A stretch of DNA of 64,000 bases from a virus, in the IMG/VR virus record IMGVR_UViG_3300025676_000013; one strand, written 5' to 3'. Both the position numbers and the translations under genes were made by a program. Shown piece by piece: positions 13,822 to 26,482 of the stretch. The first letter of the stretch is position 1; every line of letters starts with the position of its first letter. Below the pieces are notes generated by a model. It was given only the letters and a program-made list of their open reading frames with translations, did no database searches and was not told the DNA's origin.

Positions 13822-14634
13822 TTATCCTACTAAGAAATTAACCGGAAGTTCATAATTAAGTGAAAATTCTTCTTGAAGTTTCTCAATCTCTTCTTTCGCT
13901 TCATCCCAAACTTGTTGCCCATTTACTGTAATCCCACCAGGCAATGGCATTCCGTCAAATTGTTTCATATTTGCACCCCATTGCTGTTTTATCTGAGCAG
14001 TGGCATACTTCTTCACCCATTCATCGTTATATACATCTACAGCGAATCCGGTTGCTTCATCTGGAGTAACTGCTTTCCACGCCCTTAGAAGCATAGAGTG
14101 TCCTTTAGTCCAAGTACCTGAAGCGGCTTCACAAGCGGCTTGAGTTAGTATCGTATCATCTGAACAACTTGGTCCAATGATTTTGCCAGAGTGTGAGTGT
14201 AATTGATTTGTTGCTTTATTGAAAGAAAATGTTCTGTCTGGATTAAAATAACTGGCAACCATATCTAAATGTTGCATTGTTATTTCATAATATGCCATAC
14301 TAACTTTGGTCATATCAAACATCTCATCCGCCATAATCTTGTAACGGACATCATTCATTGCTTCTGAGGAGAATCGTCCTGGCTCAAATATCCTAGTTAC
14401 TGCTATAATTGATTCATCTAGCGTAATATACTGATTAGTAGCATCAAGCGCCGTGAACTCTACAGTAAGAAACTTTTCCTCTGCACCATCAAAATGTCGC
14501 TCAATGAAGAGTTGAATCGCATCATCAATTCGGTCGAATGCCTGTATAGGCTCGACTTGAATTTCTATCTTAGGAGAACCTAGTTTCCTAAAAGCGTAAT
14601 CCATTAACTCCTGTGCTGTCTGTATTTTTGCCAT
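13822..14634 (-). CDS. gp13: Neck protein, T4 gp13-like, with inserted Cys module
   Basis: YAFRKLGSPKIEI, WVKKYATAQIKQQWGANMKQFDGMPLPGGITVNG. Confidence 0.92.
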   Translation of the reverse strand: MAKIQTAQELMDYAFRKLGSPKIEIQVEPIQAFDRIDDAIQLFIERHFDGAEEKFLTVEFTALDATNQYITLDESIIAVTRIFEPGRFSSEAMNDVRYKIMADEMFDMTKVSMAYYEITMQHLDMVASYFNPDRTFSFNKATNQLHSHSGKIIGPSCSDDTILTQAACEAASGTWTKGHSMLLRAWKAVTPDEATGFAVDVYNDEWVKKYATAQIKQQWGANMKQFDGMPLPGGITVNGQQVWDEAKEEIEKLQEEFSLNYELPVNFLVG

Positions 14635-14660
14635 AATTTACCTCGTATTCATTTCTTGTT

Positions 14661-15029
14661 CTATTTATGTTGTTTCAATTCTTTCATAATTGTCTTGTAC
14701 TGCTTCCTTATGGACCATCTGAACCTTAGTATCGTATAGATAAACGTAGAAATTGTGAGTGAATATCCAATATGGATTACGGCTTGAATCATATGTGGTT
14801 GTCCTTGTTGGTCTACGGCCATCATTGCCATCGTTTGTAAATCTGTATAACACAGGAAACAGTTATATGAACTGTAGAACTCTATGAGGGCTCCGAGCAA
14901 AATTGCAGAGCGTGCCCAACAGGAATAATACTTTCTGTGACGTAATGTAAAGAAGAATGCTCCGAAGGCTAGGGCTGTTACTATTATTGAGAGATATTTC
15001 TCGACTTCAAAAATTATTGTTGTATCCAT
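14661..15029 (-). CDS. Multi-pass membrane protein (holin candidate)
   Basis: Three hydrophobic segments and a basic C-terminal tail (RWSIRKQYKTIMKELKQHK). Confidence 0.5.
   Translation of the reverse strand: MDTTIIFEVEKYLSIIVTALAFGAFFFTLRHRKYYSCWARSAILLGALIEFYSSYNCFLCYTDLQTMAMMAVDQQGQPHMIQAVIHIGYSLTISTFIYTILRFRWSIRKQYKTIMKELKQHK
14662..14669 (-). promoter_or_regulatory. Late promoter variant for gp13
   Basis: CATAAATA (N-ATAAATA) 28 nt upstream of the gp13 ATG. Confidence 0.55.
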
Positions 15030-15036
15030 TATAGTC

Positions 15037-15306
15037 TCATCCGCTCTTAATCCAATATATCACCAGGCCAATGCCAGCGGACAATATAAGCCAAAAGAGC
15101 CTCTCTCCGTTACCTATCTGCATTTTGCTAGTAGAAATGTCTACCTGTTGGTCATCGGTTTGGTCAATTAGTTTATCCAACTTCTTTTCGATGCGGTCCA
15201 CAGAGTTGTAAACCGTTTTCATCTGTTCTTCAAGTCGGGTAATTCTTTCTTTCATATTATCAATACCGGACCACAGTCTTTCTAGCGTTTCTCTTCCTGT
15301 GTCCAT
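15037..15306 (-). CDS. Coiled coil with C-terminal TM helix, XhlA/haemolysin-like lysis accessory candidate
   Basis: ERITRLEEQMKTVYNSVDRIEKKLDKL followed by LFWLILSAGIGLVIYWI. Confidence 0.5.
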   Translation of the reverse strand: MDTGRETLERLWSGIDNMKERITRLEEQMKTVYNSVDRIEKKLDKLIDQTDDQQVDISTSKMQIGNGERLFWLILSAGIGLVIYWIKSG

Positions 15307-15375
15307 ATTTTCCCTAACGTATATATAATTGTGTTACTTTAAAATTAAATAGTCTCTTCTAAGTGGCTATAATAG

Positions 15376-15383
15376 TATTTATA
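15376..15383 (-). promoter_or_regulatory. Late promoter for the membrane genes and gp13 onward
   Basis: TATAAATA on the minus strand; adjacent to a plus-strand TATAAT (15368-15373) upstream of hldE. Confidence 0.75.
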
Positions 15384-15409
15384 TAAAAGTGTGAGTTGGA
15401 GATGATATT

Positions 15410-16654
15410 ATGAATAAACGAATTTATGTAGTGGGTGATGTGATGCTAGACACATACTGGTCAGGAGTCTCGACCCGTATCTCGCCTGAATGTCCCGTAC
15501 CAGTAGTAGATGATGTGCAGATAGAAAATCGACTAGGAGGCGCTGGTAACGTCTGCCAGTCGCTTAAAGTATTTACAGACGATGTAGTGCTTTACTCTGT
15601 GGTTGGTCTGGATAGAGAGGGTGCTACTGTCGCCCAACTACTTGCTGATAGCGACATCACAAACAACTTGGCTCTGGGCCCAGAGTCAAAAACAGTCACT
15701 AAAACACGTATACTGTCGAATGACCAACAACTCTGTCGATTAGACAGTGGGTACGTTAAAGACGCTCCTCCCTCATTTGGAGAGTCACCAGACGTTGTTA
15801 TAATAAGCGATTATGGCAAGGGTACGATAACACCTGAAGTAATTGACAAGATTATCTATGATAACGACTGCCCTATTCTAGTTGACCCAAAAGGAACAAA
15901 CTGGGAAAAGTACACTGGTGTCTACGCAATAACTCCTAATAGAAAAGAATTTGAAGATGCGTATGGAGAATTGACATTTGAAAACGCTACAGAGGTTATA
16001 GAAGATTTGGATATACAAGGAATTCTAATAACTCTAGGTGCAAATGGAATGTGGTGGATTGGTAAAGACGGCACATCTATTATAAGACCAGTACCTGAAA
16101 TCGACCAAGTTCGAGATGTTACTGGCGCAGGAGATACCGTAATCGCAACCTTTGGTCTATTTCTAGATAGAGGGATTACAGTTGCTATGGATTTAGCAAA
16201 TAGGGCCGCTGGTAATGTTGTAACTAAATTAGGTACATCGATTCCAGACAAGGAGGCCGTTGTTGAGACTGTAGTATTCACAAACGGGTGCTTTGACATC
16301 ATTCATTCAGGACATATCTCCTTGCTCAATCAGGCATCTTCGTTTGGAGACAGGCTGGTGGTAGGGCTAAATAGTGATGCTTCGATGACTCGAATTAAAC
16401 GAAAACCTGTTAATAGTCAAGAAGAAAGGAAAAAAGTATTAGAAGCAATTACAGGAGTTGATAATGTAATTATATTTGAAGAAAATACACCATATGACTT
16501 GATTAAATCATTAGAACCTGATATAATAGTGAAAGGCGGTGATTACACAGTTGACCAAGTTGTCGGAAACGATTTAGCAGAGGTCAAGATTATCGATACT
16601 ATTAAAGGCAAAAGTACAAGTGAAACAATAGAGAGAGCAAAATATGTCAGATAA
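15410..16654 (+). CDS. hldE: Bifunctional heptose-7-phosphate kinase / heptose-1-phosphate adenylyltransferase
   Basis: PfkB-type kinase (VGDVMLD...RISPECPVPVV, GGAGNV, DVTGAGDTV) fused to a nucleotidyltransferase (FTNGCFDIIHSGH, VVGLNSDAS, KGGDY); GGAG RBS. Confidence 0.93.
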   Translation: MNKRIYVVGDVMLDTYWSGVSTRISPECPVPVVDDVQIENRLGGAGNVCQSLKVFTDDVVLYSVVGLDREGATVAQLLADSDITNNLALGPESKTVTKTRILSNDQQLCRLDSGYVKDAPPSFGESPDVVIISDYGKGTITPEVIDKIIYDNDCPILVDPKGTNWEKYTGVYAITPNRKEFEDAYGELTFENATEVIEDLDIQGILITLGANGMWWIGKDGTSIIRPVPEIDQVRDVTGAGDTVIATFGLFLDRGITVAMDLANRAAGNVVTKLGTSIPDKEAVVETVVFTNGCFDIIHSGHISLLNQASSFGDRLVVGLNSDASMTRIKRKPVNSQEERKKVLEAITGVDNVIIFEENTPYDLIKSLEPDIIVKGGDYTVDQVVGNDLAEVKIIDTIKGKSTSETIERAKYVR

Positions 16655-17084
16655 AATTATTAAAGGATGGGGTCACGAACTCATCATTGAAAGCAATGAA
16701 ACCTACTGTATGAAACAACTCTGTTTCTTTGCAAAGGGACACAAATCATCCTTTCACTTCCACAAAAACAAAACAGAAACTTGGTTAATACAAAAAGGTT
16801 CTGTTTCAGTTGAAATGATGGATATGAAAGATGCGACCACTAGAACTATTATTTTAAAAGAGGGAGATACGCTTCATATACCGCCAATGACTCCTCATCA
16901 AGTAACTAATCTAATCCCAGAAACAGTTATCCTCGAGGCATCTAGTAAAGACACACCCGAGGATAATTATCGTATTGCACCTGGAGATTCTCAGAAACTA
17001 GGAAAAAGACCTACTCAGTTTGTCCAAGAGGACATAAAACCAGGCGATTATACTAGGGGAGAAAAACGAGACATTATGGTCTAG
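16644..17084 (+). CDS. Cupin-fold putative sugar isomerase
   Basis: KGWGHE...SFHFHKNKTETW...IPPMTPHQ cupin metal motifs; overlaps the hldE stop. Confidence 0.75.
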   Translation: MSDKIIKGWGHELIIESNETYCMKQLCFFAKGHKSSFHFHKNKTETWLIQKGSVSVEMMDMKDATTRTIILKEGDTLHIPPMTPHQVTNLIPETVILEASSKDTPEDNYRIAPGDSQKLGKRPTQFVQEDIKPGDYTRGEKRDIMV

Positions 17085-18183
17085 CAGGAATAGAGAATCC
17101 TGCGTTATCCATATTTGCACAAGTGTACGTTTGATAATGCAGGGCTAATTCTTCAGGCATTGGGATATAACGAATAGCATCTTCATCACCGTCAACCACT
17201 TCTAGTGCTAATTCAAGGAATGAACGAACCTCACCCATACCAACATTATATACGCCACTTCGTGCTTGACTCATTGCATTTATTGTACAATACACGGCCG
17301 CTTCAACGGTAATAAAGTCTCGTTTGAATTGGTCTGAACCAATAAACAAACTAACTTTACCACTTTTAGCATATTGTTCTTTCATCCAACAAGTCGCAGA
17401 TTTCATACCATCTTTATGTTGTTCGTGTTCTCCATCTGAAGTAACATTAAAATATCTTAGACCAACAATTTTTGCTTTGTCAAGAGAATCAAATTTCCTC
17501 TGGTATTTATCTGCTTGAAGTTTTGATAATGCGTAATAATTGTTTGGTGTGTAATCATCACTCTTATCATCAAACTCGGCCCACTCTTTATCAATATCCC
17601 CATAGACAGCGGCAGAAGAAGCATAGACCATTGGAACATTATTCATAGCACAAATGTCCATAAGATTGCAGGTATATTGATAGTTATTTTCCATCAAATA
17701 TTTCCCATCAGTACAAGTAGTGGCACTTTCAGCACCAAGATGATAAAGACACTCTACCATTTTATTCTGCACCATAAATGAGAACAATTCAATAAATTTA
17801 GATTTGTCTATGTAGTCTTGGAATTTAAGGTGTTTGATGTTATGAATTTTTCTTGGGTCAGACAAATCATCAACTAGAATGATATTCTCTTGTCCTCGTG
17901 CATTCAAATTCTTTATCAAATGAGTACCAATAAATCCTGCTCCACCAGTAACGATAATTAATTTATCGCCACCGAACTGCCCGATTGCATCTTCTGGAGC
18001 GGCGTGTTCCTCTGGGTCAGGCGGACGTTGCATTAACTCCTCAGTTTGTGGTGCGGCGTGTACCTCTAACACCTCATTCTCTTCATCCAAATCGTGGTTC
18101 GGGTCATCACCCATTACGTGACCATCTCTGATATTCATCATATCTTCATTAGTAAGTTGGCTAACATCTTTCTTATCAGTCAT
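17074..18183 (-). CDS. hldD: ADP-L-glycero-D-manno-heptose 6-epimerase with acidic N-terminal extension
   Basis: IIVTGGAGFIG, LYHLGAESATT, NNYQYT, YASSAAVYG, YALSK (YxxxK), GLRYFNV, FKRDF, YQTYTCA. Confidence 0.88.
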   Translation of the reverse strand: MTDKKDVSQLTNEDMMNIRDGHVMGDDPNHDLDEENEVLEVHAAPQTEELMQRPPDPEEHAAPEDAIGQFGGDKLIIVTGGAGFIGTHLIKNLNARGQENIILVDDLSDPRKIHNIKHLKFQDYIDKSKFIELFSFMVQNKMVECLYHLGAESATTCTDGKYLMENNYQYTCNLMDICAMNNVPMVYASSAAVYGDIDKEWAEFDDKSDDYTPNNYYALSKLQADKYQRKFDSLDKAKIVGLRYFNVTSDGEHEQHKDGMKSATCWMKEQYAKSGKVSLFIGSDQFKRDFITVEAAVYCTINAMSQARSGVYNVGMGEVRSFLELALEVVDGDEDAIRYIPMPEELALHYQTYTCANMDNAGFSIPARP

Positions 18184-19978
18184 CTGTTTTCTCCTTGTTT
18201 TTCACTTCAATAATTAGATTATTATCTGGTATGTACAAATATTCAATATCACTATCTCGTAAAGTTCTGATAGCATCATCGATTGTTTCTACCAGAGGTT
18301 CACCACCTAAATTAAACGATGTATTAAATAAGATAGGTACTCCAGTTTGAATGTGAAATTCTTTTATCATTGCATAGTAAATTGGATTCTGGTGTTCTTT
18401 AACAGTCTGAATCCTACACGTACCATCTATATGGATAATTGCAGGAATCATTGCCGCGTGTTCTTCAGTAGCACAATTCATTGCGTACATCATATGAGGA
18501 GATTCTTCCATTCCTCTCATATCGAACCACTCATCGGCGTGTTCGTGAAGAATGCTTCCAGCAAATGGCCGGAAATATTCTCTATGTTTTACTGAGTTAA
18601 CGTAATCTTTTCCTTCTGGTGTTCTTGGGTCATATAAGATAGAACGATTACCCAATGCTCGTGGACCATTCTCACACTTGCTTTGAAACAATGTAACAAT
18701 ATTCCCTTGCAAAATTAGTTTAACAGCATCTTCTGGAGTTTGATTATTTGTAACAGCGGTTGCTCCATAGGCTTTCGCAATCTCAACAATCTCATCATCA
18801 GTTGATTTCACTTCTGGACCAAGAAACAATGACTCACCAAACGGACGAACTGTTTTGTCTTTAGTAACATTATAGTGAATAAGTAATGCCGCACCCATAG
18901 CGGTACCAGCATCATTTGATATAGGCTCAACATATAGATTAATGCCTTCTTCTTTTAATTGCTCAAGATACCAATAATTAGCAACACAATTTAGACCATA
19001 ACCACCAGAAATGACAACATTTTTATTGCCACTCATTGCTACGGCTTTACGAATGAGCGTAAGTACCATTGATTGAGATTCAGTTTGAATAGCATATGCC
19101 ATATCTCTACGATTTTGTAGTAGAGTTACATCACCCTTCATCTCCTCTTCTGTACTTGTTAATGATTCATATCTGCCTTCATTGACAAGAGCACCATTAG
19201 GATAAGTTGGAATAATGACATTTCTATCAGTAGTCAACCACTTTCCACTTGGTCCGCCATCTGTGTAAATTGCAGGAATATCTTCGTTATATTTTCCGTA
19301 AGGGAAAAGACCCATAGTCTTTCCTGCTTCAATGGGCTGCCATCCACAATATTGTGTAACTGCCTCATATGCTTTTACGATACCACCAGAATCATCAAGA
19401 ACTAGTTCGTGTCTGCCTTCTTCTGCTTCTCGACCAGAATCCATATCTTTAACAGTAACAGAGGGCCAAGGGCCTCGACCACCCTGGTGTTTATAAAGAG
19501 TTTTAAATCTGTCTGGATAAGCACAATCAAAAATCGACTCTAGTTCCCAAGTCATTTCTTCTGCACCATTAATATTCATTGGAATGAAAGTTCCTGCACC
19601 ATCAACAATAAGAGCAACGGCAGATTCAAATCCACTTCGATAAAACGCACAAGAGGCGTGCATCTTGTGATGCCATTTATCCATCATTATTACTTGGTTG
19701 TTCGGGTCGTTAATTAGTCGCAATTTCCTGGCAAGTCCTACTATCACTTTATCGCCACTAAATTCTACTCGACTTTCATCTGGTTGAGTGTGACTAACAA
19801 CAAGATAATCAATCTTATCGGTGTATTCTAGAATTTTAACAAGGGAGGCATAAGGACCACCATCATATTTTTGTCTTGAAAGGCGTTCTTCTTCGATAGA
19901 GAAAACAATTTCACCATCTTTCAATAAACATACCCCACCATTGTGGCCTCGGGCAACGCCTGCAATCCATAAACTCAT
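18176..19978 (-). CDS. O-carbamoyltransferase (NodU/CmcH/TobZ family), copy A
   Basis: EEERLSRQK, HHKMH, DGAG, GKTMGL, SGGYGLNCVAN, NDAGTAMGAA, GPRALGNRSIL, KHREYFRPFA, NTSFN. Confidence 0.93.
   Translation of the reverse strand: MSLWIAGVARGHNGGVCLLKDGEIVFSIEEERLSRQKYDGGPYASLVKILEYTDKIDYLVVSHTQPDESRVEFSGDKVIVGLARKLRLINDPNNQVIMMDKWHHKMHASCAFYRSGFESAVALIVDGAGTFIPMNINGAEEMTWELESIFDCAYPDRFKTLYKHQGGRGPWPSVTVKDMDSGREAEEGRHELVLDDSGGIVKAYEAVTQYCGWQPIEAGKTMGLFPYGKYNEDIPAIYTDGGPSGKWLTTDRNVIIPTYPNGALVNEGRYESLTSTEEEMKGDVTLLQNRRDMAYAIQTESQSMVLTLIRKAVAMSGNKNVVISGGYGLNCVANYWYLEQLKEEGINLYVEPISNDAGTAMGAALLIHYNVTKDKTVRPFGESLFLGPEVKSTDDEIVEIAKAYGATAVTNNQTPEDAVKLILQGNIVTLFQSKCENGPRALGNRSILYDPRTPEGKDYVNSVKHREYFRPFAGSILHEHADEWFDMRGMEESPHMMYAMNCATEEHAAMIPAIIHIDGTCRIQTVKEHQNPIYYAMIKEFHIQTGVPILFNTSFNLGGEPLVETIDDAIRTLRDSDIEYLYIPDNNLIIEVKNKEKTDD
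19884..19924. repeat. 41-bp perfect direct repeat, copy 1 (copy 2 at 21674-21714)
   Basis: CGTTCTTCTTCGATAGAGAAAACAATTTCACCATCTTTCAA is identical near the 5' ends of both carbamoyltransferases. Confidence 0.9.
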
Positions 19979-21768
19979 TTTTGTACTCCATTATATAATT
20001 TAATTAGAATTTTTATTTCTGGCAACCAACAATATTCCATATCGGAAACACTTAATGTCTTTAGGGCATCATCAATAGTCTCTACTAATGGTTCACCCGA
20101 CAAATTAAATGATGTATTGAATAATATTGGTACATCTGTAATCTTATGAAACTCCTCAATGAGTTCGTAGAAATTACTATTGTCCTCTCTGCTTACTGTC
20201 TGTATTCTACACGTATTATCTATATGACAAATAGATGGCACTAAATCTACCTTATCTTTCTTAACATCAACCGCATACATCATATTAGGAGATTCTTTTA
20301 GTCCCTTCATATCAAACCATTCGTGGACATATTCTTTCAATACTGAACCAGCAAATGGTCGAAAATATTCTCTACCCTTCACTTTGTTCACTATGTCTTT
20401 ACCATTTTTTATAGTAGGATTGAATAATATACTTCTATTACCCAATGCTCTCGGTCCAGACTCAGAACGGCCTTGAAATATAGAAACGATATTCCCTTCT
20501 TTAATCAGATACGCAACATCTTCCGCATAAGCAATTTCCATTTCACCACCATATTTCTCAACTTTCTGGCGTATATCCACAACATCATAATTATAATCTG
20601 GTCCTAAATATAGATTATCATTTCTTTTCCTAACAACGTCATCCTTCGTCACCAAATAGTGTTGCAGTAAAGCGGCGCCAGTGGCAGTTCCCGCATCGGA
20701 AGAGTTTGGCTCTACATACAAATTGATGCCAAGTTCGTTTAACTTGTCTAAGTAATAATAATTAGAAACGCAGTTGAGGGCATAGCCGCCACTTAATACA
20801 ACATTCTTATTAATATTCATCTTGGATGCGTTGATGATTAGATTTAATACTTGTTCTTGTGTATCTTTTTGTACCTTGAATGCCATATCCCTTCTAAAAC
20901 TAGATTTGGATAAATCTTCGCTCCAATCCATATCATTCAAAAACTCAAATTCATCTTTAGATATATTAAGACTTGTACGATGTGGATATTGGGACTTTAT
21001 CAAATCTTTATTAGATGTATTACCACGGAACAAGTAAGGTAGGCTATCATTCTCTTTACCAAATGCAGATAAGCCCATAGTCTTTCCTGCATCATTTATG
21101 TGAAATCCACAATAATCTGTGACTCCATCCCAAACTTTTCCAATTCCTGCGCCATCATCTGCTATCAGCATAAATTTCTCATCTAATAGTTTATCGTGAC
21201 ACTCTGGTATGTGATAACTTCTTCCCTTATCACATCCTAATTTTTTATATCGAGAATTGAATCCTTTTGAATAGGAACAGTCGTAAATACTTTCTACTTC
21301 AAAATACAAACCACTTTCCTCATCCGTTCCCAATTCCCGTCCACTGCCGCAACTATCTACAATGACACTTGTAGCAGATTCAAACCCAGAATTATAGAAG
21401 GCAATCGCTGAATGGAGTCTGTGATGATTATCAAACATCTTAATGACTTGTGGAGATTGTATATCGATTTGGTCGGTCTGTTCAATTAATCCTAATCGTC
21501 TTGCTGTACCTTGCCATATATCTTCTCGTGTATAATCAAAGACTGGATATGAGCGTTCATCTTGTGTGTTTGTGACTATACCAGACACCACTAGATAATC
21601 TAATTTATCTGTGTAGTCTAATATCTTCAACATACTAAGCAAAGGTCCACCATCGGCTTTTGACCTAGAGAGCCGTTCTTCTTCGATAGAGAAAACAATT
21701 TCACCATCTTTCAACAAACAAACTCCAGCGTTATGGCCTACCGCAATGCCTGCAATCCAGACTGCCAT
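19975..21768 (-). CDS. O-carbamoyltransferase (NodU/CmcH/TobZ family), copy B
   Basis: EEERLSRSK, HHRLH, GKTMGL, SGGYALNCVSN, SDAGTATGAA, GPRALGNRSIL, KGREYFRPFA, NTSFN. Confidence 0.93.
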   Translation of the reverse strand: MAVWIAGIAVGHNAGVCLLKDGEIVFSIEEERLSRSKADGGPLLSMLKILDYTDKLDYLVVSGIVTNTQDERSYPVFDYTREDIWQGTARRLGLIEQTDQIDIQSPQVIKMFDNHHRLHSAIAFYNSGFESATSVIVDSCGSGRELGTDEESGLYFEVESIYDCSYSKGFNSRYKKLGCDKGRSYHIPECHDKLLDEKFMLIADDGAGIGKVWDGVTDYCGFHINDAGKTMGLSAFGKENDSLPYLFRGNTSNKDLIKSQYPHRTSLNISKDEFEFLNDMDWSEDLSKSSFRRDMAFKVQKDTQEQVLNLIINASKMNINKNVVLSGGYALNCVSNYYYLDKLNELGINLYVEPNSSDAGTATGAALLQHYLVTKDDVVRKRNDNLYLGPDYNYDVVDIRQKVEKYGGEMEIAYAEDVAYLIKEGNIVSIFQGRSESGPRALGNRSILFNPTIKNGKDIVNKVKGREYFRPFAGSVLKEYVHEWFDMKGLKESPNMMYAVDVKKDKVDLVPSICHIDNTCRIQTVSREDNSNFYELIEEFHKITDVPILFNTSFNLSGEPLVETIDDALKTLSVSDMEYCWLPEIKILIKLYNGVQK

Positions 21769-21770
21769 AT

Positions 21771-22865
21771 TTATTTATCCTCTAGAAGATTCTTGGCATC
21801 GAAATCGTAGACTGATTTTTCTGGTGCTTGCGTTGGTGGTGGTGCAGTTTCTACGTTAGGAACTCCACAACTTCCGCCTTGTGCTTGCATCGGAGTAGGC
21901 TTTTGACCTTTAAACTCTCCGCCTTCACCTAAGAATGACTTACAAGAATCAATAATTTCTTGTTCTTCAGATTCCTCAAGCATCATAGCCTTATCATTCT
22001 GTCTGTCTAATTCATCATCCATTGAGATTCGGATTGGAGAATATACTCTGCCCTTTCTTGCACCAACGTCAATAATATCAAACTCATCAACTTCTGGATA
22101 ACTGATATTAATTGGTACAGTAGAACCAACAACAACTGTAGCCGTCTTGTCGAATGCTCGAACTAAATGCTGACCAAGACTATCGCAACCCAAGAAATGG
22201 TCTGCGTTCATAATCATAGAAGCCCATAAACGTAAATTGGGTTCTTTAGGCATAGCAACTTGGTGTTTTGGATTTGACGTAAGAGGAACCTGCAATTCAG
22301 ACATCATAACAACACCATAATCTACCCGAAGTTTATCAACGATGTTGACAATATTCTGCACTTCAAAAGAACGTGAGGTAGGGTCAATTAAGAAGTCTCC
22401 CATAGGACTAACAGAACGACCGAATGGTTGAATAACGACTATTTTGTCTTTATTCAATCCAGACTTCATCTCTTGAATAGACTGATAGCCAGTCACCATC
22501 TCTTGCTTATTGAGATTTAATGTGGGTTTTGGAAGTTCTCGTGGTGCATCAAGACCGTTGATTTCAATATCAAACGCTTGAGCCAGAGAACATTCTTGGT
22601 TGAAGTATGCGTTAATTCGATACGGTTCTAGCGTAATCAAATCCTTGTCTTTCAAATGTTCGCTGAATAGACCCTTGTGCCATACTTCATATGCTTTATT
22701 TTGGAGAACAGGATGTCCTCTGTATAAATCCATACCGCCTTCACAGACAATTATGAAATCTTCGTCACCAGATTCTTCGGCATATTTCTCAAATGCCGGA
22801 ATTGAACATAGTACCCTACCGGCACCGCCATTAATAAAGAACGCTTTTGAACGAACTGTCATCAC
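21771..22865 (-). CDS. GT-B glycosyltransferase-like protein resembling GT9 heptosyltransferases
   Basis: INGGAGRVLCSIP (cf. GT9 GD-x-x-x-x-x-P), VVIQPFG, MIMNADHFLGCDSLGQHLVRAFDKTATVVVGST (cf. GT9 C-terminal DSG..H motif). Confidence 0.6.
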   Translation of the reverse strand: MMTVRSKAFFINGGAGRVLCSIPAFEKYAEESGDEDFIIVCEGGMDLYRGHPVLQNKAYEVWHKGLFSEHLKDKDLITLEPYRINAYFNQECSLAQAFDIEINGLDAPRELPKPTLNLNKQEMVTGYQSIQEMKSGLNKDKIVVIQPFGRSVSPMGDFLIDPTSRSFEVQNIVNIVDKLRVDYGVVMMSELQVPLTSNPKHQVAMPKEPNLRLWASMIMNADHFLGCDSLGQHLVRAFDKTATVVVGSTVPINISYPEVDEFDIIDVGARKGRVYSPIRISMDDELDRQNDKAMMLEESEEQEIIDSCKSFLGEGGEFKGQKPTPMQAQGGSCGVPNVETAPPPTQAPEKSVYDFDAKNLLEDK

Positions 22866-22909
22866 TTCACCTCACTGTTAATTATAAAAATAATCTTAAA
22901 CTTAAACGT

Positions 22910-22938
22910 ATTATAGCATAACTGCTATGGCTTGTCAA
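22910..22938 (-). promoter_or_regulatory. Perfect sigma70 promoter for the GT-carbamoyltransferase-hldD operon
   Basis: TTGACA (22938-22933), 17 nt, TATAAT (22915-22910); a CATAAATA late variant lies at 22952-22959. Confidence 0.88.
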
Positions 22939-22962
22939 GCAATTATGTAACTATTTATGCAA

Positions 22963-23000
22963 ATAAAAAAGGCTCTAAATTCCGAAGAATAGAGAGCCTT
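22963..23000 (-). terminator. Rho-independent terminator with cUUCGg loop after the tail chaperone
   Basis: Minus strand AAGGCTCT-CT-ATTC-TTCG-GAAT-TT-AGAGCCTT followed by TTTTATTT. Confidence 0.88.
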
Positions 23001-23022
23001 TCTTGATTTCTTATTGAATTAT

Positions 23023-23763
23023 TTACTCATCAACGCCAGTGATTGGAGCCAATTGAGCAATTGCATCTGCATCATCCGCAGTACGCTCGGCTATCCGAAT
23101 AACCTTATGCTCTGGGTCTTCGTCACGGATATACGGCTCATCATACTCGCCATCAGGGTCAGTTGGCCATTTAATCAAATGATTTGGAACAGCCGACCAA
23201 TCTGCAGGAATATCACGCAATTTTTGGCGATATGCCATCCATTCTGCTTTAACAGACTCAGGCATATCATCAGCGATACGACCATCAGACTGTTTCAATT
23301 TAGCGTTACGCTCTTCCCTAATAAACTCATCAGTTTGTCTACGAAAATCAGTTCTAAACACTAGAGGCTTAGTATAATCATCGATGATATCATTCTCTGA
23401 AAAAATCATTCGTGGGTCAGATGGGTCAACAATAACTGCATTATCATCTTCTACAGGTCCTACAGCGACTTCGTAGAGTTTCCTCTCAGCGAATCCGCCG
23501 AAGAGAAGTGCAATTTTAATTGTATTCTCATCTGTATCAGCGTTAAGTTCTTTGACTTCAAGATTCAAAGGAACAGGTTGGTCTGTATAATCGTCTTTAT
23601 CCCAAGTTTGTTCAATATCTTTAGTCTCTTTGTCAATCCAGAGGATTAGAGTAGACGGCCCATCATAACTTTGCGTAGACGTTTTACCTAACGCTTTTGT
23701 TGGGACAGCCTGTTCAAACTCGTCTGGTACGTCATAAGTTACGACTTTTTGTACGTGTGCCAT
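23023..23763 (-). CDS. Tail fibre assembly chaperone-like protein 1
   Basis: FIREERNAKLKQSD...WMAYRQKLRDIP...WP motif typical of phage tail assembly chaperones. Confidence 0.72.
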   Translation of the reverse strand: MAHVQKVVTYDVPDEFEQAVPTKALGKTSTQSYDGPSTLILWIDKETKDIEQTWDKDDYTDQPVPLNLEVKELNADTDENTIKIALLFGGFAERKLYEVAVGPVEDDNAVIVDPSDPRMIFSENDIIDDYTKPLVFRTDFRRQTDEFIREERNAKLKQSDGRIADDMPESVKAEWMAYRQKLRDIPADWSAVPNHLIKWPTDPDGEYDEPYIRDEDPEHKVIRIAERTADDADAIAQLAPITGVDE

Positions 23764-23792
23764 TTTATTCTATCTCCTAAAATTCATATTAA

Positions 23793-24767
23793 TTATTGGT
23801 AAGTCACTTTGACTAATCCGCCTGCGCCAAATCCACCTGTACAAGCAGTTCCTGCACCGACAGAGTTTCCTGAACCACCCCCACCAGGGAAGGCACTGTG
23901 AGCAGAACAACAAGCAACGCCACCAGTACACCACTGTTTACCAACACCAGTCCCGGAGACTGTAAATGGTCCAGCAGGGCCACCAGTTGTAGTTGCCATA
24001 TGAGTACAACAATCGTATTCTTTGTGGAAAGACGAATTGATTCCTCTGAAACACATATCGCCGCCGTACGTGGCTTCGTTACAGTTATGAGAAACCCAAC
24101 CTGCGTTATAGTTACCTCTGTCACACTGAGCATTACCGATATGACAGTTATAACAGTTAGACATTACATCCCAAGAAGTAGAACCACCGTGACCACCGAT
24201 TGCACAGAAGTTAGATAGTCCAGGACCAGTTACATAAGAAGAACAACCGTGTCGGCACGCTCTGTTACAAGTTGTACAACAAGAACACTGTGAAGTTCCA
24301 CCAGCACATAGCGTATATGTTGATTCTGAACCCGCAGTTGATATGAAATCACCCGCATCTTTACAGATAGTCTTTACGTTATAGTTTCCGCCTGCACCAC
24401 CGTGTCCGATATCATAATCGTGTCCAGCAGAGCCACCAGGGCCGCCACCAGAAAGAATTTCAAATTTGATAATCTGTGCACCAGTAGGTACTGTCCAAGA
24501 GAGACAACAACCACCATTAGTTACTGACCAATGATTCGTGTTATAGATGTAAAAATCTCTTTGTGGGTCACCACCAACACCAGTATCAATCAACGTCTGA
24601 ATGTTTGCCAATCCACTGGCAACAGCCGAATCAATTGTAGTATTTGCAGTTGCTTGTACTCCAGTTATTTCTTGTAGACTTTCGTATACGTGATTGGCCA
24701 TCAAATCTAACGCTGAGTTAGTATTTTTGGCCATTTGGTTCATTTTACCAAGTGTTAAAATATCCAT
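23793..24767 (-). CDS. Cys/Gly-rich putative tail adhesin 1
   Basis: 22 Cys by manual count; WTVPTG..IKFEILSGGGPGG, YVTGPGLSNFC, GGGGSG...GGLVKVTY Gly-rich domain; followed by a chaperone. Confidence 0.6.
   Translation of the reverse strand: MDILTLGKMNQMAKNTNSALDLMANHVYESLQEITGVQATANTTIDSAVASGLANIQTLIDTGVGGDPQRDFYIYNTNHWSVTNGGCCLSWTVPTGAQIIKFEILSGGGPGGSAGHDYDIGHGGAGGNYNVKTICKDAGDFISTAGSESTYTLCAGGTSQCSCCTTCNRACRHGCSSYVTGPGLSNFCAIGGHGGSTSWDVMSNCYNCHIGNAQCDRGNYNAGWVSHNCNEATYGGDMCFRGINSSFHKEYDCCTHMATTTGGPAGPFTVSGTGVGKQWCTGGVACCSAHSAFPGGGGSGNSVGAGTACTGGFGAGGLVKVTYQ
24730..24767. repeat. 38-bp perfect direct repeat, copy 1 (copy 2 at 26445-26482)
   Basis: GCCATTTGGTTCATTTTACCAAGTGTTAAAATATCCAT, covering the first codons of both Cys-rich genes (MDILTLGKMNQMA). 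Confidence 0.92.
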
Positions 24768-25519
24768 TATTCTTCTCCCCTCAAGGCTCTCGCCGCGTTG
24801 TTTTTGATTTCTTCGGGAGAATCTGGATGTGCTACTGTATGTAGTTCAGCATCCGCGTATTTTTGTGGGATATCCCTCAGTTCTTGTCGATAAGCATCCC
24901 AGGCATCTTTCTCTGGCCCATCAGGCAGAAGGTTTTTAACGTCTAGTTGCTCAAGTTCCATATCACGATATGCCCTAATTTCATCCCAAGATTCTGGCAT
25001 ACCAAAGTCTGCTGGTGTCCTCAAGACTAAATCCCACTCTTTTGTATCAAAATTCCAAGTACACTCATATGGGTTCCATACGTGGTCAGGTGGAATCTTA
25101 TCATTTGCTGGTCGAGAGTAATATACTGTTCCGTCAGCGAGTTTATCTTCTTGTTGAGGAAGTTTATCGTAGTTAGGAGAATCATCTCCTACTGTTTCAG
25201 GTTTTGTCCAGATAGCACATATATGAGGATTAGTTGTACAGTCGATTTCAATTCGTTCTGCATCTAGAGGAACAGGTAATGCCCTAATAGCATCTGCCAT
25301 TTCTTCTTCAGAACCATTCTCCATATCGCCATCATCAGCGTAATTCGTTTTGATTGGATTCTGATTCCATTTGCCTTTCCTATCACCTTCTTTATTGACT
25401 TGCACCCAGATAGTGTCTGGCCCTAGATAAGACATACTAGCAGTATTACCGGCAGCCGTACTCTGGGATAGATACTTATCCGGCACTGGATACGTCATTT
25501 CAATATTCAATTTAGCCAT
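24767..25519 (-). CDS. Tail fibre assembly chaperone-like protein 2
   Basis: WDEIRAYRDMEL...WDAYRQELRDIPQ; N-terminal TYPVPD...SYLGP parallels chaperone 1. Confidence 0.72.
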   Translation of the reverse strand: MAKLNIEMTYPVPDKYLSQSTAAGNTASMSYLGPDTIWVQVNKEGDRKGKWNQNPIKTNYADDGDMENGSEEEMADAIRALPVPLDAERIEIDCTTNPHICAIWTKPETVGDDSPNYDKLPQQEDKLADGTVYYSRPANDKIPPDHVWNPYECTWNFDTKEWDLVLRTPADFGMPESWDEIRAYRDMELEQLDVKNLLPDGPEKDAWDAYRQELRDIPQKYADAELHTVAHPDSPEEIKNNAARALRGEE

Positions 25520-25564
25520 TTCTAATATATCTCCTAATTATTTTTTTAATAACTTTGTTATGTC

Positions 25565-26482
25565 TTACGACCAATACGTTACTACGACTGCGCCACCGCC
25601 GCCTGCTTTTCCGCAACAGCAACCGCCCGAAGTCATACCACTATATCCGCCTACACCTGGACTCTTTGGAGAACCACCGGAGTGCATCCCGAAAGTACAA
25701 GCATCTGGTGAATGAGCATCTCCAGTTCCTAGAGGGCCTGGGGCACCTGGAGCAACTTGCCACAATCCGCCAGCACAATAATGATTTGAGTGAAACCAAG
25801 CACTTCTGCCACCCATACCGTAATCTCCACCATATACTGGTGCACAGTTAAAACAAGTATGACAACAAGTGTAACAGTTGAAACTATGACATTGTATTTG
25901 CCCTACGTGTCCACCCATTGCACAATAATTTGATAGTCCCGGTCCAGTTACATAACTCGTATGGCCTCTTCCGATTGAACTTCCCGGATAGCAACATCCA
26001 GTTCCTGCTGAACATATTTGATAAACGTCTGTACCATCTCCAACGAAATCTCCGTCATCTACGTTTAAGTGTTTAACAACATATCCTCCAGCACCACCAG
26101 GAAGTCCTACCATCATACAACAGCAAGCACCCCATCCTGAAGCGCCTCCACCGTACATTTCAAATTTAATTCCTTTAGTGTCTGCGGGTACAGTCCAAGC
26201 ACATTGATGTCCGTTATAATTAATTGCTTCTTGACCTGTAGCACCTTGACCAGAGTTACAACCAACGTATAGTACACGTTCTGGGCCACTACCTTGTCCA
26301 CCACCAGCGGCAATCAACTCTGCTACACCGTCTGCGGTAGTCTGAGTGAGTGTTCCGACTTGTGACTCTTGCAAGTCACAAACGTCTTTTAGGGCGGTAA
26401 ATGTCGCATTGGCTAGATATTCCAAGGTTTGGTCGACATCTTTCGCCATTTGGTTCATTTTACCAAGTGTTAAAATATCCAT
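25565..26482 (-). CDS. Cys/Gly-rich putative tail adhesin 2
   Basis: 20 Cys by manual count including two CCC triplets; WTVPAD..IKFEMYGGGASG, YVTGPGLSNYC, GGGGAVVVTYW; paralog of 23793-24767. Confidence 0.6.
   Translation of the reverse strand: MDILTLGKMNQMAKDVDQTLEYLANATFTALKDVCDLQESQVGTLTQTTADGVAELIAAGGGQGSGPERVLYVGCNSGQGATGQEAINYNGHQCAWTVPADTKGIKFEMYGGGASGWGACCCMMVGLPGGAGGYVVKHLNVDDGDFVGDGTDVYQICSAGTGCCYPGSSIGRGHTSYVTGPGLSNYCAMGGHVGQIQCHSFNCYTCCHTCFNCAPVYGGDYGMGGRSAWFHSNHYCAGGLWQVAPGAPGPLGTGDAHSPDACTFGMHSGGSPKSPGVGGYSGMTSGGCCCGKAGGGGAVVVTYWS

Follow-up and report, generated by a model that had tools for sequence, protein, structure and literature searches.

Lipopolysaccharide (LPS) genes have been reported in T4-like marine phages for some time, and in the cyanomyoviruses T4-GC 304, 305, 307 and 308 were described as co-occurring 'LPS genes', without a decision on whether they have a function or serve as stuffer DNA (Sullivan et al. 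2010, PMC3037559). A later paper speculates on cell-surface modification only (PMC12801897), while the carbamoyltransferase that cyanophages carry has been read as an enzyme of pyrimidine biosynthesis (PMC9146016). Judged by its sequence, that role is unlikely, because the protein is of the TobZ/NodU type. We found no paper in the literature that combines cyanophage, carbamoyltransferase and heptose. Here we examine the structural region of an uncultured T4-like marine phage related to the cyanomyoviruses, available as a stretch of 64,000 nt in the IMG/VR record IMGVR_UViG_3300025676_000013 and called the window below, in which six intact genes are tightly packed at 15410-22865. The chemistry of this cassette is well supported as that of a self-contained sugar-decoration pathway, with supply of ADP-L-glycero-D-manno-heptose, a GT9-like transferase and O-carbamoyltransferases, much as a preliminary description of the window had proposed and as family, fold and motif matches now bear out. 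Gene content, folds, motifs, synteny and purifying selection are directly supported; what we infer is what the cupin does, in which order transfer and carbamoylation take place and, most of all, which acceptor is used. For the acceptor we tentatively favour a fibre protein of the virion.

The cassette and its cyanophage relatives

On the plus strand, an HldE-like protein of 414 aa with PfkB and cytidylyltransferase domains (15410..16654) is followed by a cupin (16644..17084) that belongs to T4-GC 307 and is annotated 'cysteine dioxygenase'. The minus strand encodes, in order of transcription, a GT9-like glycosyltransferase of 364 aa from the T4-GC 302/PHROG 8954 family (21771..22865, with the ATG at 22862 as its probable start codon), O-carbamoyltransferase A, an accessory tandem paralogue (19975..21768), O-carbamoyltransferase B of T4-GC 303, the universal partner of the transferase (18176..19978), and HldD, the ADP-L-glycero-D-manno-heptose 6-epimerase (17074..18183). 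Spacing from the transferase to HldD consists of a 2-nt gap followed by overlaps of 4 nt and 8 nt. The end of hldE and the start of the cupin overlap by 11 nt, and the cupin converges on HldD with an 11-nt overlap as well. The preliminary description had the transferase, the two carbamoyltransferases and hldD in one operon converging on hldE and the cupin, and all six genes are found intact where it placed them. The G+C content of the cassette is the same as that of the remainder of the window.

The co-occurrence of these genes, which the preliminary description offered as a check, was examined in 80 viral contigs anchored on the transferase; their loci are related, and the counts are not independent events. 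A carbamoyltransferase gene starts within 800 nt after the transferase and on the same strand in 64 of 64 loci having at least 2 kb of downstream sequence, and homologues of HldE, HldD and the cupin are present in 34 of 39 loci having at least 8 kb. Among cultured phages, the same pair is found with heptose genes in P-SSM2 (PSSM2_307-313), S-SSM7 (SSSM7_120-133) and S-CAM1 (SXBG_00222-216), in each case between tail-fibre and neck genes, as in the window. With the pair, the heptose genes, the cupin and the adjoining tail-fibre genes all found, the window cassette is a variant of the T4-GC 302-308 cassette, and the gene set itself is not new. This agrees with the remark in the preliminary description that LPS-type genes occur in marine T4-like phages without functional assignment (PMC3037559).

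The window version departs from those of the isolates in several ways. Its transferase is 46-56% identical to theirs, its carbamoyltransferase 45-66%, its cupin 36-41% and its HldD-like epimerase 30-34%. The window encodes HldE in one fused gene on the other strand, whereas the isolates have a separate adenylyltransferase and kinase that are only 28-40% identical to HldE. HldD is on the strand of the transferase in the window, in contrast to the epimerase of the P-SSM2 clade, which is opposite; a small phosphatase of the haloacid dehalogenase (HAD) type, T4-GC 306, is present in the isolates and not in the window version; and a second carbamoyltransferase is inserted in the window version, unlike T4-GC 302-308. 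In the P-SSM2 clade the supply module is built from separate genes, in which adenylyltransferase, kinase and the 110-aa protein come before the cupin and the epimerase is on the opposite strand. Comparing the window clade with the P-SSM2 clade, the transferase is 53-58% and carbamoyltransferase B 63-67% identical, as against 34-41% for the cupin, 31-36% for HldD and 27-35% for the parts of HldE. From these comparisons, two non-orthologous modules of ADP-heptose supply appear to serve the same transferase-carbamoyltransferase pair, and that two differently built modules accompany one pair argues that selection keeps the combination together. The additions made here to the known gene set are these two supply modules, the re-identification of T4-GC 306, the cupin as the only candidate isomerase, the presence or absence of the second carbamoyltransferase, and the isolates that have no hydroxymethylase.

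Purifying selection acts on the six genes, because pairwise dN/dS against the closest contig, L004, is 0.07-0.57. This bears on the proposal raised for cyanophage LPS genes generally by Sullivan et al. 2010 (PMC3037559), by which the cassette would be non-functional cargo, either 'stuffer' DNA or acquired genes in decay. The score of HldE below its curated equivalog cut-off is a point for that proposal. It has to contend with six intact frames with catalytic motifs, with the dN/dS values just given, with a promoter that is conserved, with a transferase family that makes up 3384 metagenome clusters at 90% identity, and with genes that overlap or nearly abut, compatible with translational coupling. 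We consider cargo the least credible of all the explanations. The transferase gene itself (21771-22865) compares to L004:1179-2270 with dS 0.34 and 89% amino acid identity, against dS of 0.05-0.18 and 91-98% for its neighbours; this higher divergence suggests an allele exchange by recombination at the transferase gene. Near-identical DNA is absent from 50,697 phage records.

Predicted heptose supply and O-carbamoylation

HldE is a fusion of PF00294 and PF01467. Its NCBIfam scores are 358.6 bits to NF008454 (cut-off 521), 251 bits to TIGR02198 (rfaE_dom_I) and 155 bits to TIGR02199 (rfaE_dom_II), all three under the curated cut-offs, and the protein falls short of equivalog assignment. These heptose-family scores far exceed those of any other kinase or transferase family, and with GAGD at residue 239 and HSGH at residue 299, HldE has the PfkB-cytidylyltransferase fusion, the heptose-specific best matches and the motifs of its family. 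HldD passes the equivalog cut-off of TIGR02197, with 280 bits over 274.6, has the GGAGFIG and YxxxK (YALSK) motifs of the short-chain dehydrogenase/reductase superfamily, and finds E. coli HldD as its best PDB match (E = 1e-54 to 1e-55). It starts with a 72-residue acidic extension (17968-18183, minus strand) that is missing from E. coli HldD and from the P-SSM2 epimerase. The extension is probably disordered, and it looks genuine because the HldD start overlaps the end of carbamoyltransferase B. A control search with the heptose kinase matched all 14 control genomes via general PfkB similarity and is uninformative on cyanobacterial hosts.

The cupin has Pfam matches to Cupin_2, MannoseP_isomer and Lyx_isomer. 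The residues of its H-x-H...E...H metal site (H38, H40, E45 and H85) are invariant in 20 homologues, and its model has a predicted local distance difference test (pLDDT) score of 87. A fold search with the model returns hundreds of cupins at similar scores, with D-lyxose isomerases as the top identities followed by a cupin phosphoglucose isomerase, which weakly backs a role as a sugar isomerase. The cupin is the only candidate isomerase, because every other member of the P-SSM2 version of the cassette already has a role, as kinase, phosphatase, adenylyltransferase or epimerase in the supply, or in transfer and carbamoylation. No SIS-type GmhA (SIS_2) was found in the complete P-SSM2 and S-SSM7 genomes or in three partial relatives. 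We regard the cupin as a probable sedoheptulose-7-phosphate isomerase at roughly an even chance, and think that T4-GC 307 in general is probably not a cysteine dioxygenase but a sugar-phosphate isomerase.

The protein that is labelled 'phosphoheptose isomerase' in the isolates, T4-GC 306 of about 110 aa (P-SSM2 PSSM2_311, L003:9915-10259; S-SSM7 and S-CAM1, L001:15468-15803 and L002:9762-10085), has no SIS domain. It matches PDB ID: 9iqw, a 'capsule biosynthesis protein' (E = 1e-10), and TIGR01689, and has a DIDGT motif. By these matches it is a small HAD phosphatase and not an isomerase, and probably a GmhB analogue. The preliminary description had GmhA and GmhB missing from the window, and indeed tblastn with the three isolate T4-GC 306 proteins found no homologue there, while domain scans of the cassette open reading frames detected neither an SIS nor an HAD domain. 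The window version is without a phosphatase gene, and this enzyme has to be supplied by another part of the genome or by the host.

Put together, the pathway would begin with the cupin turning sedoheptulose-7-phosphate into D-glycero-D-manno-heptose-7-phosphate, which HldE would phosphorylate at C1. A phosphatase, the small HAD enzyme in the P-SSM2-type version and otherwise one from elsewhere, would strip the 7-phosphate, HldE would adenylylate the product to ADP-D,D-heptose, and HldD would epimerise this to ADP-L,D-heptose. The phage-only GT9-like enzyme would then move the heptose onto an acceptor, where one or two TobZ/NodU-type enzymes would O-carbamoylate it with carbamoyl phosphate and ATP.

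For the last step, both paralogues have Carbam_trans_N and Carbam_trans_C domains with scores above the Pfam cut-offs (PF02543 73-89 bits, PF16861 192-196 bits), that is, the Kae1-like N domain and YrdC-like C domain of the TobZ/NodU/CmcH O-carbamoyltransferases, and both have the HHxxH, VDxxG, GPRALGNR and NTSFN motifs. Orthology to NodU was considered and rejected at 138 bits against a cut-off of 1000. Carbamoyltransferases A and B are 48% identical to each other. B is 65% identical to the S-SSM7 protein, has a dN/dS of 0.07-0.10, and finds its PDB relatives in 7xb6, GdmN, the novobiocin carbamoyltransferase and TobZ (E = 1e-41 to 1e-53); the solved relatives of both paralogues are O-carbamoyltransferases throughout. 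Carbamoyltransferase A is an accessory gene. Two metagenomic phage contigs, L020 (2932-3113) and L022 (2932-4859), agree at 99.98% identity through the 8.3 kb downstream, and a single complete carbamoyltransferase gene of 1746 bp sets them apart, with the junction located where the tandem paralogues have common 5' ends. The A and B genes of the window share a 41-nt identical stretch near their starts (~19885-19925 and ~21675-21715).

T4 DNA glucosyltransferases have GT-B folds, as the transferase of the cassette does, and one explanation to be weighed is that the cassette enzymes act on a modified base of the phage DNA, comparable to T4 glucosyl-hmC or 5-carbamoyloxymethylcytosine. A distant transferase homologue of 373 aa on a 99-kb viral contig (L087:8450-12976) is flanked by genes for a GT25 glycosyltransferase and a dCMP deaminase, with Dda-like and UvsW-like helicases close by. 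A phage TobZ-family enzyme is known that carbamoylates 5-hydroxymethylcytosine (5hmC) in DNA, although such enzymes travel with thymidylate synthase, MazG-like and deaminase genes, and those on unmodified contigs adjoin glycosyltransferases (PMC8670742). The preliminary description had named action of the carbamoyltransferases on DNA bases as a finding that would overturn it, and this case has lost ground: the complete genomes of the cassette isolates S-SSM7, S-CAM1 and P-SSM2 encode no hydroxymethylase of the thymidylate synthase family (PF00303), while a control search found the family in 10 of 14 genomes. The cassette is also located in the structural module. DNA hypermodification is, in our estimate, very improbable.

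Every solved relative of the carbamoyltransferases tailors small molecules, as TobZ, GdmN and the novobiocin enzyme do, and the product could be soluble, a carbamoylated heptose nucleotide or heptoside acting as metabolite, signal or inhibitor. In some relatives a halogenase, 2-oxoglutarate (2OG) oxygenases and a methyltransferase would perhaps be involved. S-SSM7 (L001:9803-13411) and L050 (13231-16824) do have 2OG-Fe(II) oxygenases and a tryptophan halogenase interleaved with or following the cassette, and the S-SSM7 insertions also include a putative methyltransferase, a short second carbamoyltransferase and denV. These extra genes could be either a tailoring set or the contents of an insertion hot-spot. 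The acceptor-side residues R17, E80, Y82, E122 and D161 of the transferase are highly conserved next to hypervariable adhesins, as expected if the acceptor is chemically constant. A small-molecule product is nonetheless improbable in our view, given that there are no genes to build a scaffold (polyketide synthase or nonribosomal peptide synthetase), that the minimal conserved unit is the transferase and carbamoyltransferase alone, that the window has no extra tailoring genes, and that the region may be a mere hot-spot for insertion.

The GT9-like transferase

The transferase is a member of PHROG 8954 ('unknown function') and is labelled 'hypothetical protein' in GenBank. It has no Pfam match even at E = 10 and none in NCBIfam, and its family profile gives no meaningful sequence match in the PDB. 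What it is becomes recognisable from the AlphaFold model, with a pLDDT of 84 and a predicted template modelling (pTM) score of 0.82. The model superimposes best on solved GT9 enzymes, with Z = 22.3 to the Veillonella GT9 protein 3tov (282 residues aligned at a root-mean-square deviation [rmsd] of 3.8), followed by Z = 20.7 to WaaF (1psw), Z = 19.6 to the protein heptosyltransferase TibC (4rap; 268 residues, rmsd 3.4) and Z = 18.4 to WaaC (2h1h; 18.1-18.4 over the WaaC structures). The best GT-B fold that is not GT9-like, 3ot5, is at Z = 12.3. Foldseek matches to GT9 structures have E = 2e-9 to 4e-6. The single protein does not reach the PF01075 gathering score, and 52 of 65 diverse relatives match that family weakly, the best at E = 1.2e-8.

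An hhalign comparison of the transferase profile to WaaC/WaaF/WaaU has 94% probability and aligns the C-terminal domains, pairing R165 with WaaC K192, D228 with D261, S229 with T262 and H233 with H266 at the donor site. D228 and H233 are invariant among the relatives, and R165 and S229 are kept in 64 of 65. The N-terminal domains are not aligned by hhalign, and there the resemblance is at the level of a motif, MGDVLHTLPAL of WaaC reading AGRVLCSIPAF in the transferase, with the catalytic Asp13 of WaaC replaced by Arg17 in 62 of 65 relatives. E80, Y82 and E122 are further conserved polar residues in the N-terminal half, and D161 is invariant too. The 'GT9-like' label of the preliminary description therefore stands for the fold, which is specifically GT9-like, and for the donor site, which is kept, but it finds no match in Pfam or NCBIfam, and the catalytic Asp is lost. 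By its modelled fold the protein is best described as a divergent, phage-only GT9-like subfamily and not as a classical GT9 member, probably with the donor site for an ADP-sugar and a different acceptor site. By linkage to HldE and HldD, its putative donor is ADP-heptose.

The family is large, with the metagenome clusters counted above coming from public collections and with 578 representatives at 50% identity; the nearest Atlas clusters are each 98-100% viral. Cellular homologues were considered and rejected. In 185,579 species genomes the matches are only short contigs of metagenome-assembled genomes of highly disparate taxa (L090-L099, labelled Crocinitomicaceae, Chitinophagales, Actinomycetota, Methanobacteriota, Flavobacteriales, Verrucomicrobiales and Yoonia), almost certainly mis-binned phage DNA. 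Distant, shortened homologues of 23-29% identity are found in Vibrio phages (about 27 records) and in a single Aeromonas phage, for example Vibrio phage D505 (L085:7001-7738, 246 aa) and Aeromonas phage HJ05 (L084:6995-7918, 307 aa). The D505 homologue has a protein of >2000 aa on one side and a 'tail protein' of 1756 aa on the other, and its surroundings contain no heptose genes.

GT9 enzymes are classically the heptosyltransferases of the LPS core, and it would be natural to suppose that the cassette remodels the host envelope. Carbamoyl-heptose on host LPS or another surface polysaccharide could mask receptors, block superinfection, or keep progeny from re-adsorbing to infected cells and debris. 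In the Pseudomonas inner core, WaaC and WaaF are joined by WapO, a putative carbamoyltransferase, and HepII is carbamoylated (PMC8005017). Large LPS-type clusters also occur in P-SSM2 and S-SSM7, T4-GC 304, 305, 307 and 308 are found with other LPS genes in S-SM2 (PMC3037559), and the conserved sigma-70 promoter described below suggests early expression. The LPS of marine Synechococcus WH8102 and CC9311, though, has neither heptose nor 3-deoxy-D-manno-oct-2-ulosonic acid (Kdo) (PMC4515613), so the hosts of the cultured relatives lack the classical GT9 acceptor on LPS, and a phage there must make its own donor. In addition, the WaaC catalytic Asp is an Arg, the profile comparison gives no alignment of the N-terminal acceptor domain to WaaC/WaaF, the transferase family is found in phages only, and the cassette holds no flippase, ligase or membrane protein. 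The host LPS core, the leading one of two targets that the preliminary description had considered and the customary reading of such 'LPS genes', is weakened by the Synechococcus LPS composition and by the loss of the WaaC-type Asp, and we rate host-envelope remodelling as unlikely, if still a serious contender.

Candidate acceptors and comparison with known systems

The other target, the virion fibres, is now tentatively favoured by the gene context and the TibC-like fold of the transferase. Towards lower coordinates the cassette is bordered by a gene resembling the small terminase, by gp15, the tail sheath stabiliser, and by a neck protein. On the upper side there are two pairs, each made up of a Gly/Cys-rich protein and a tail-fibre chaperone, and then giant fibre proteins of 1194-2570 aa. 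Both pairs are directly upstream of the cassette at 23023-26482 (minus strand), with PF21722 in one of the Gly/Cys-rich proteins and PF16778 in the chaperones. They are obvious candidate substrates, though highly divergent among relatives. Across isolates, the neighbouring chaperone gives 5 weak matches and is too divergent for its co-variation with the cassette to be followed.

Between these genes and the transferase is a set of signals on the minus strand. A predicted intrinsic terminator after the tail-fibre chaperone gene (22965..23004; hairpin of -19.4 kcal/mol, z = -5.6 against shuffles, then a U-run) would shield the cassette from upstream fibre transcription. It is followed by CATAAATA, a box like a T4 late promoter (22952..22959) that is read in the sequence as a putative promoter element; many related loci have a NATAAATA box upstream of their transferase gene. 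Then comes a consensus sigma-70 promoter, TTGACA-17-TATAAT with TG before the -10 element (22910..22938), the sole 12/12 match within 14500-23500. Of 83 related loci, 21 have a 12/12 site at 30-50 nt upstream of the transferase gene and 8 more have an 11/12 site (that of L003 at 84 nt), so the promoter is kept although the proteins of those loci are only 56-88% identical to the window's. The subclade L030-L039 has the late-type box only. Read from these signals, expression of the cassette is probably early, or both early and late, and promoter timing does not decide the target.

The acceptor we favour is a virion protein encoded alongside the cassette, a fibre-tip adhesin or a fibre, that would be modified in the cytoplasm before assembly in the way that TibC/AAH modify autotransporter adhesins. 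What speaks for it is the operon position, fixed between the genes for fibre-tip adhesins and chaperones and those for the neck; the place of TibC among the best structural matches of the transferase; and the match of all six proteins to cytoplasmic enzyme families. Carbamoyltransferase A being on or off between contigs that are 99.98% identical is as expected for a surface-exposed structure under selection. TibC structure papers are said to describe an extra N-terminal region and a conserved Cys cluster that binds iron, and here the comparison falls short: the transferase model aligns to TibC residues 90-391 only, so that the N-terminal extension of about 90 residues is lacking, and no Cys is invariant or nearly invariant among the 65 transferase relatives. 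With these two features and the WaaC catalytic Asp all missing, the donor and mechanism of the transferase remain predictions.

Several other points weigh against decoration of the fibres by this pathway. A GmhB is missing from the window. Five of the 39 loci have the transferase and carbamoyltransferase with no heptose genes within 10 kb, and the L087 homologue is in the context of a replication module, not a tail. The synteny with fibre genes is limited to one related phage group and may reflect descent and not function, while the conserved sigma-70 promoter suggests expression ahead of the structural genes. In core genes the window phage is distant from cultured cyanophages, its proteins being only 38-55% identical to their counterparts there (large terminase 55%, gp15 38%). 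Virion proteomes are published only for phages without the cassette (PMC3037559). On balance, that the cassette carbamoyl-heptosylates a virion fibre protein is our leading reading, held with somewhat less than even confidence. A fuller version of it is possible and held more tentatively: an Arg-for-Asp phage branch of GT9 would O-heptosylate the phage's own receptor-binding fibres with phage-made ADP-heptose in a heptose-free host, and one or two carbamoyltransferases would tune the glycan, the second being switched by recombination between the paralogues. Such a system would, to our knowledge, be the first glycosylated tail-fibre system in T4-like phages.

If the cassette does decorate fibre tips, host recognition by T4-like marine phages would have a post-translational layer, the particles of an abundant group of ocean viruses would bear a virus-specific sugar mark, and the 'LPS genes' that have stood without an explanation since 2005-2010 would have one. 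If it acts on the host surface instead, it would amount to seroconversion by a lytic phage, in cells normally free of heptose. For annotation, we would label the transferase as GT9-like, T4-GC 306 as a HAD phosphatase, T4-GC 307 as probably a sugar-phosphate isomerase, and the carbamoyltransferase as TobZ/NodU-type.

Among known systems, TibC/AAH, acting on the adhesins TibA/AIDA-I, shares with the phage transferase a GT9-like fold in a cytoplasmic ADP-heptose enzyme whose gene lies beside adhesin genes. TibC acts on protein, whereas a protein acceptor of the phage transferase is proposed here from gene context, and the two enzymes are about 10% identical in sequence, the phage one being without the extension and the conserved Cys cluster. 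In the mycobacteriophages of Freeman et al. 2023 (a study cited in PMC12801897), phage glycosyltransferases have reportedly been shown, or else proposed, to act on structural proteins of the phage itself, in a system said to involve other transferase families, sugars and hosts, and neither heptose nor a carbamoyl group. The LPS inner core of Pseudomonas is alike in the outline of its chemistry, with ADP-L,D-heptose, GT9-fold transferases and an O-carbamoyl group on heptose, put on HepII by WapO (PA5005), a putative carbamoyltransferase (PMC8005017). Its acceptor is Kdo2-lipid A, missing in marine Synechococcus (PMC4515613), and its WaaC has the catalytic Asp13 where the phage transferase, under the Pfam GT9 threshold, has Arg. 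The 5hmC carbamoyltransferase (Yang et al. 2021, PMC8670742) is likewise a phage-borne enzyme of the TobZ/NodU family using carbamoyl phosphate and ATP, and the partners set the two apart: in that system a thymidylate-synthase-like hydroxymethylase, a MazG-like pyrophosphohydrolase and a deaminase, and in the window a GT9-like transferase and heptose genes.

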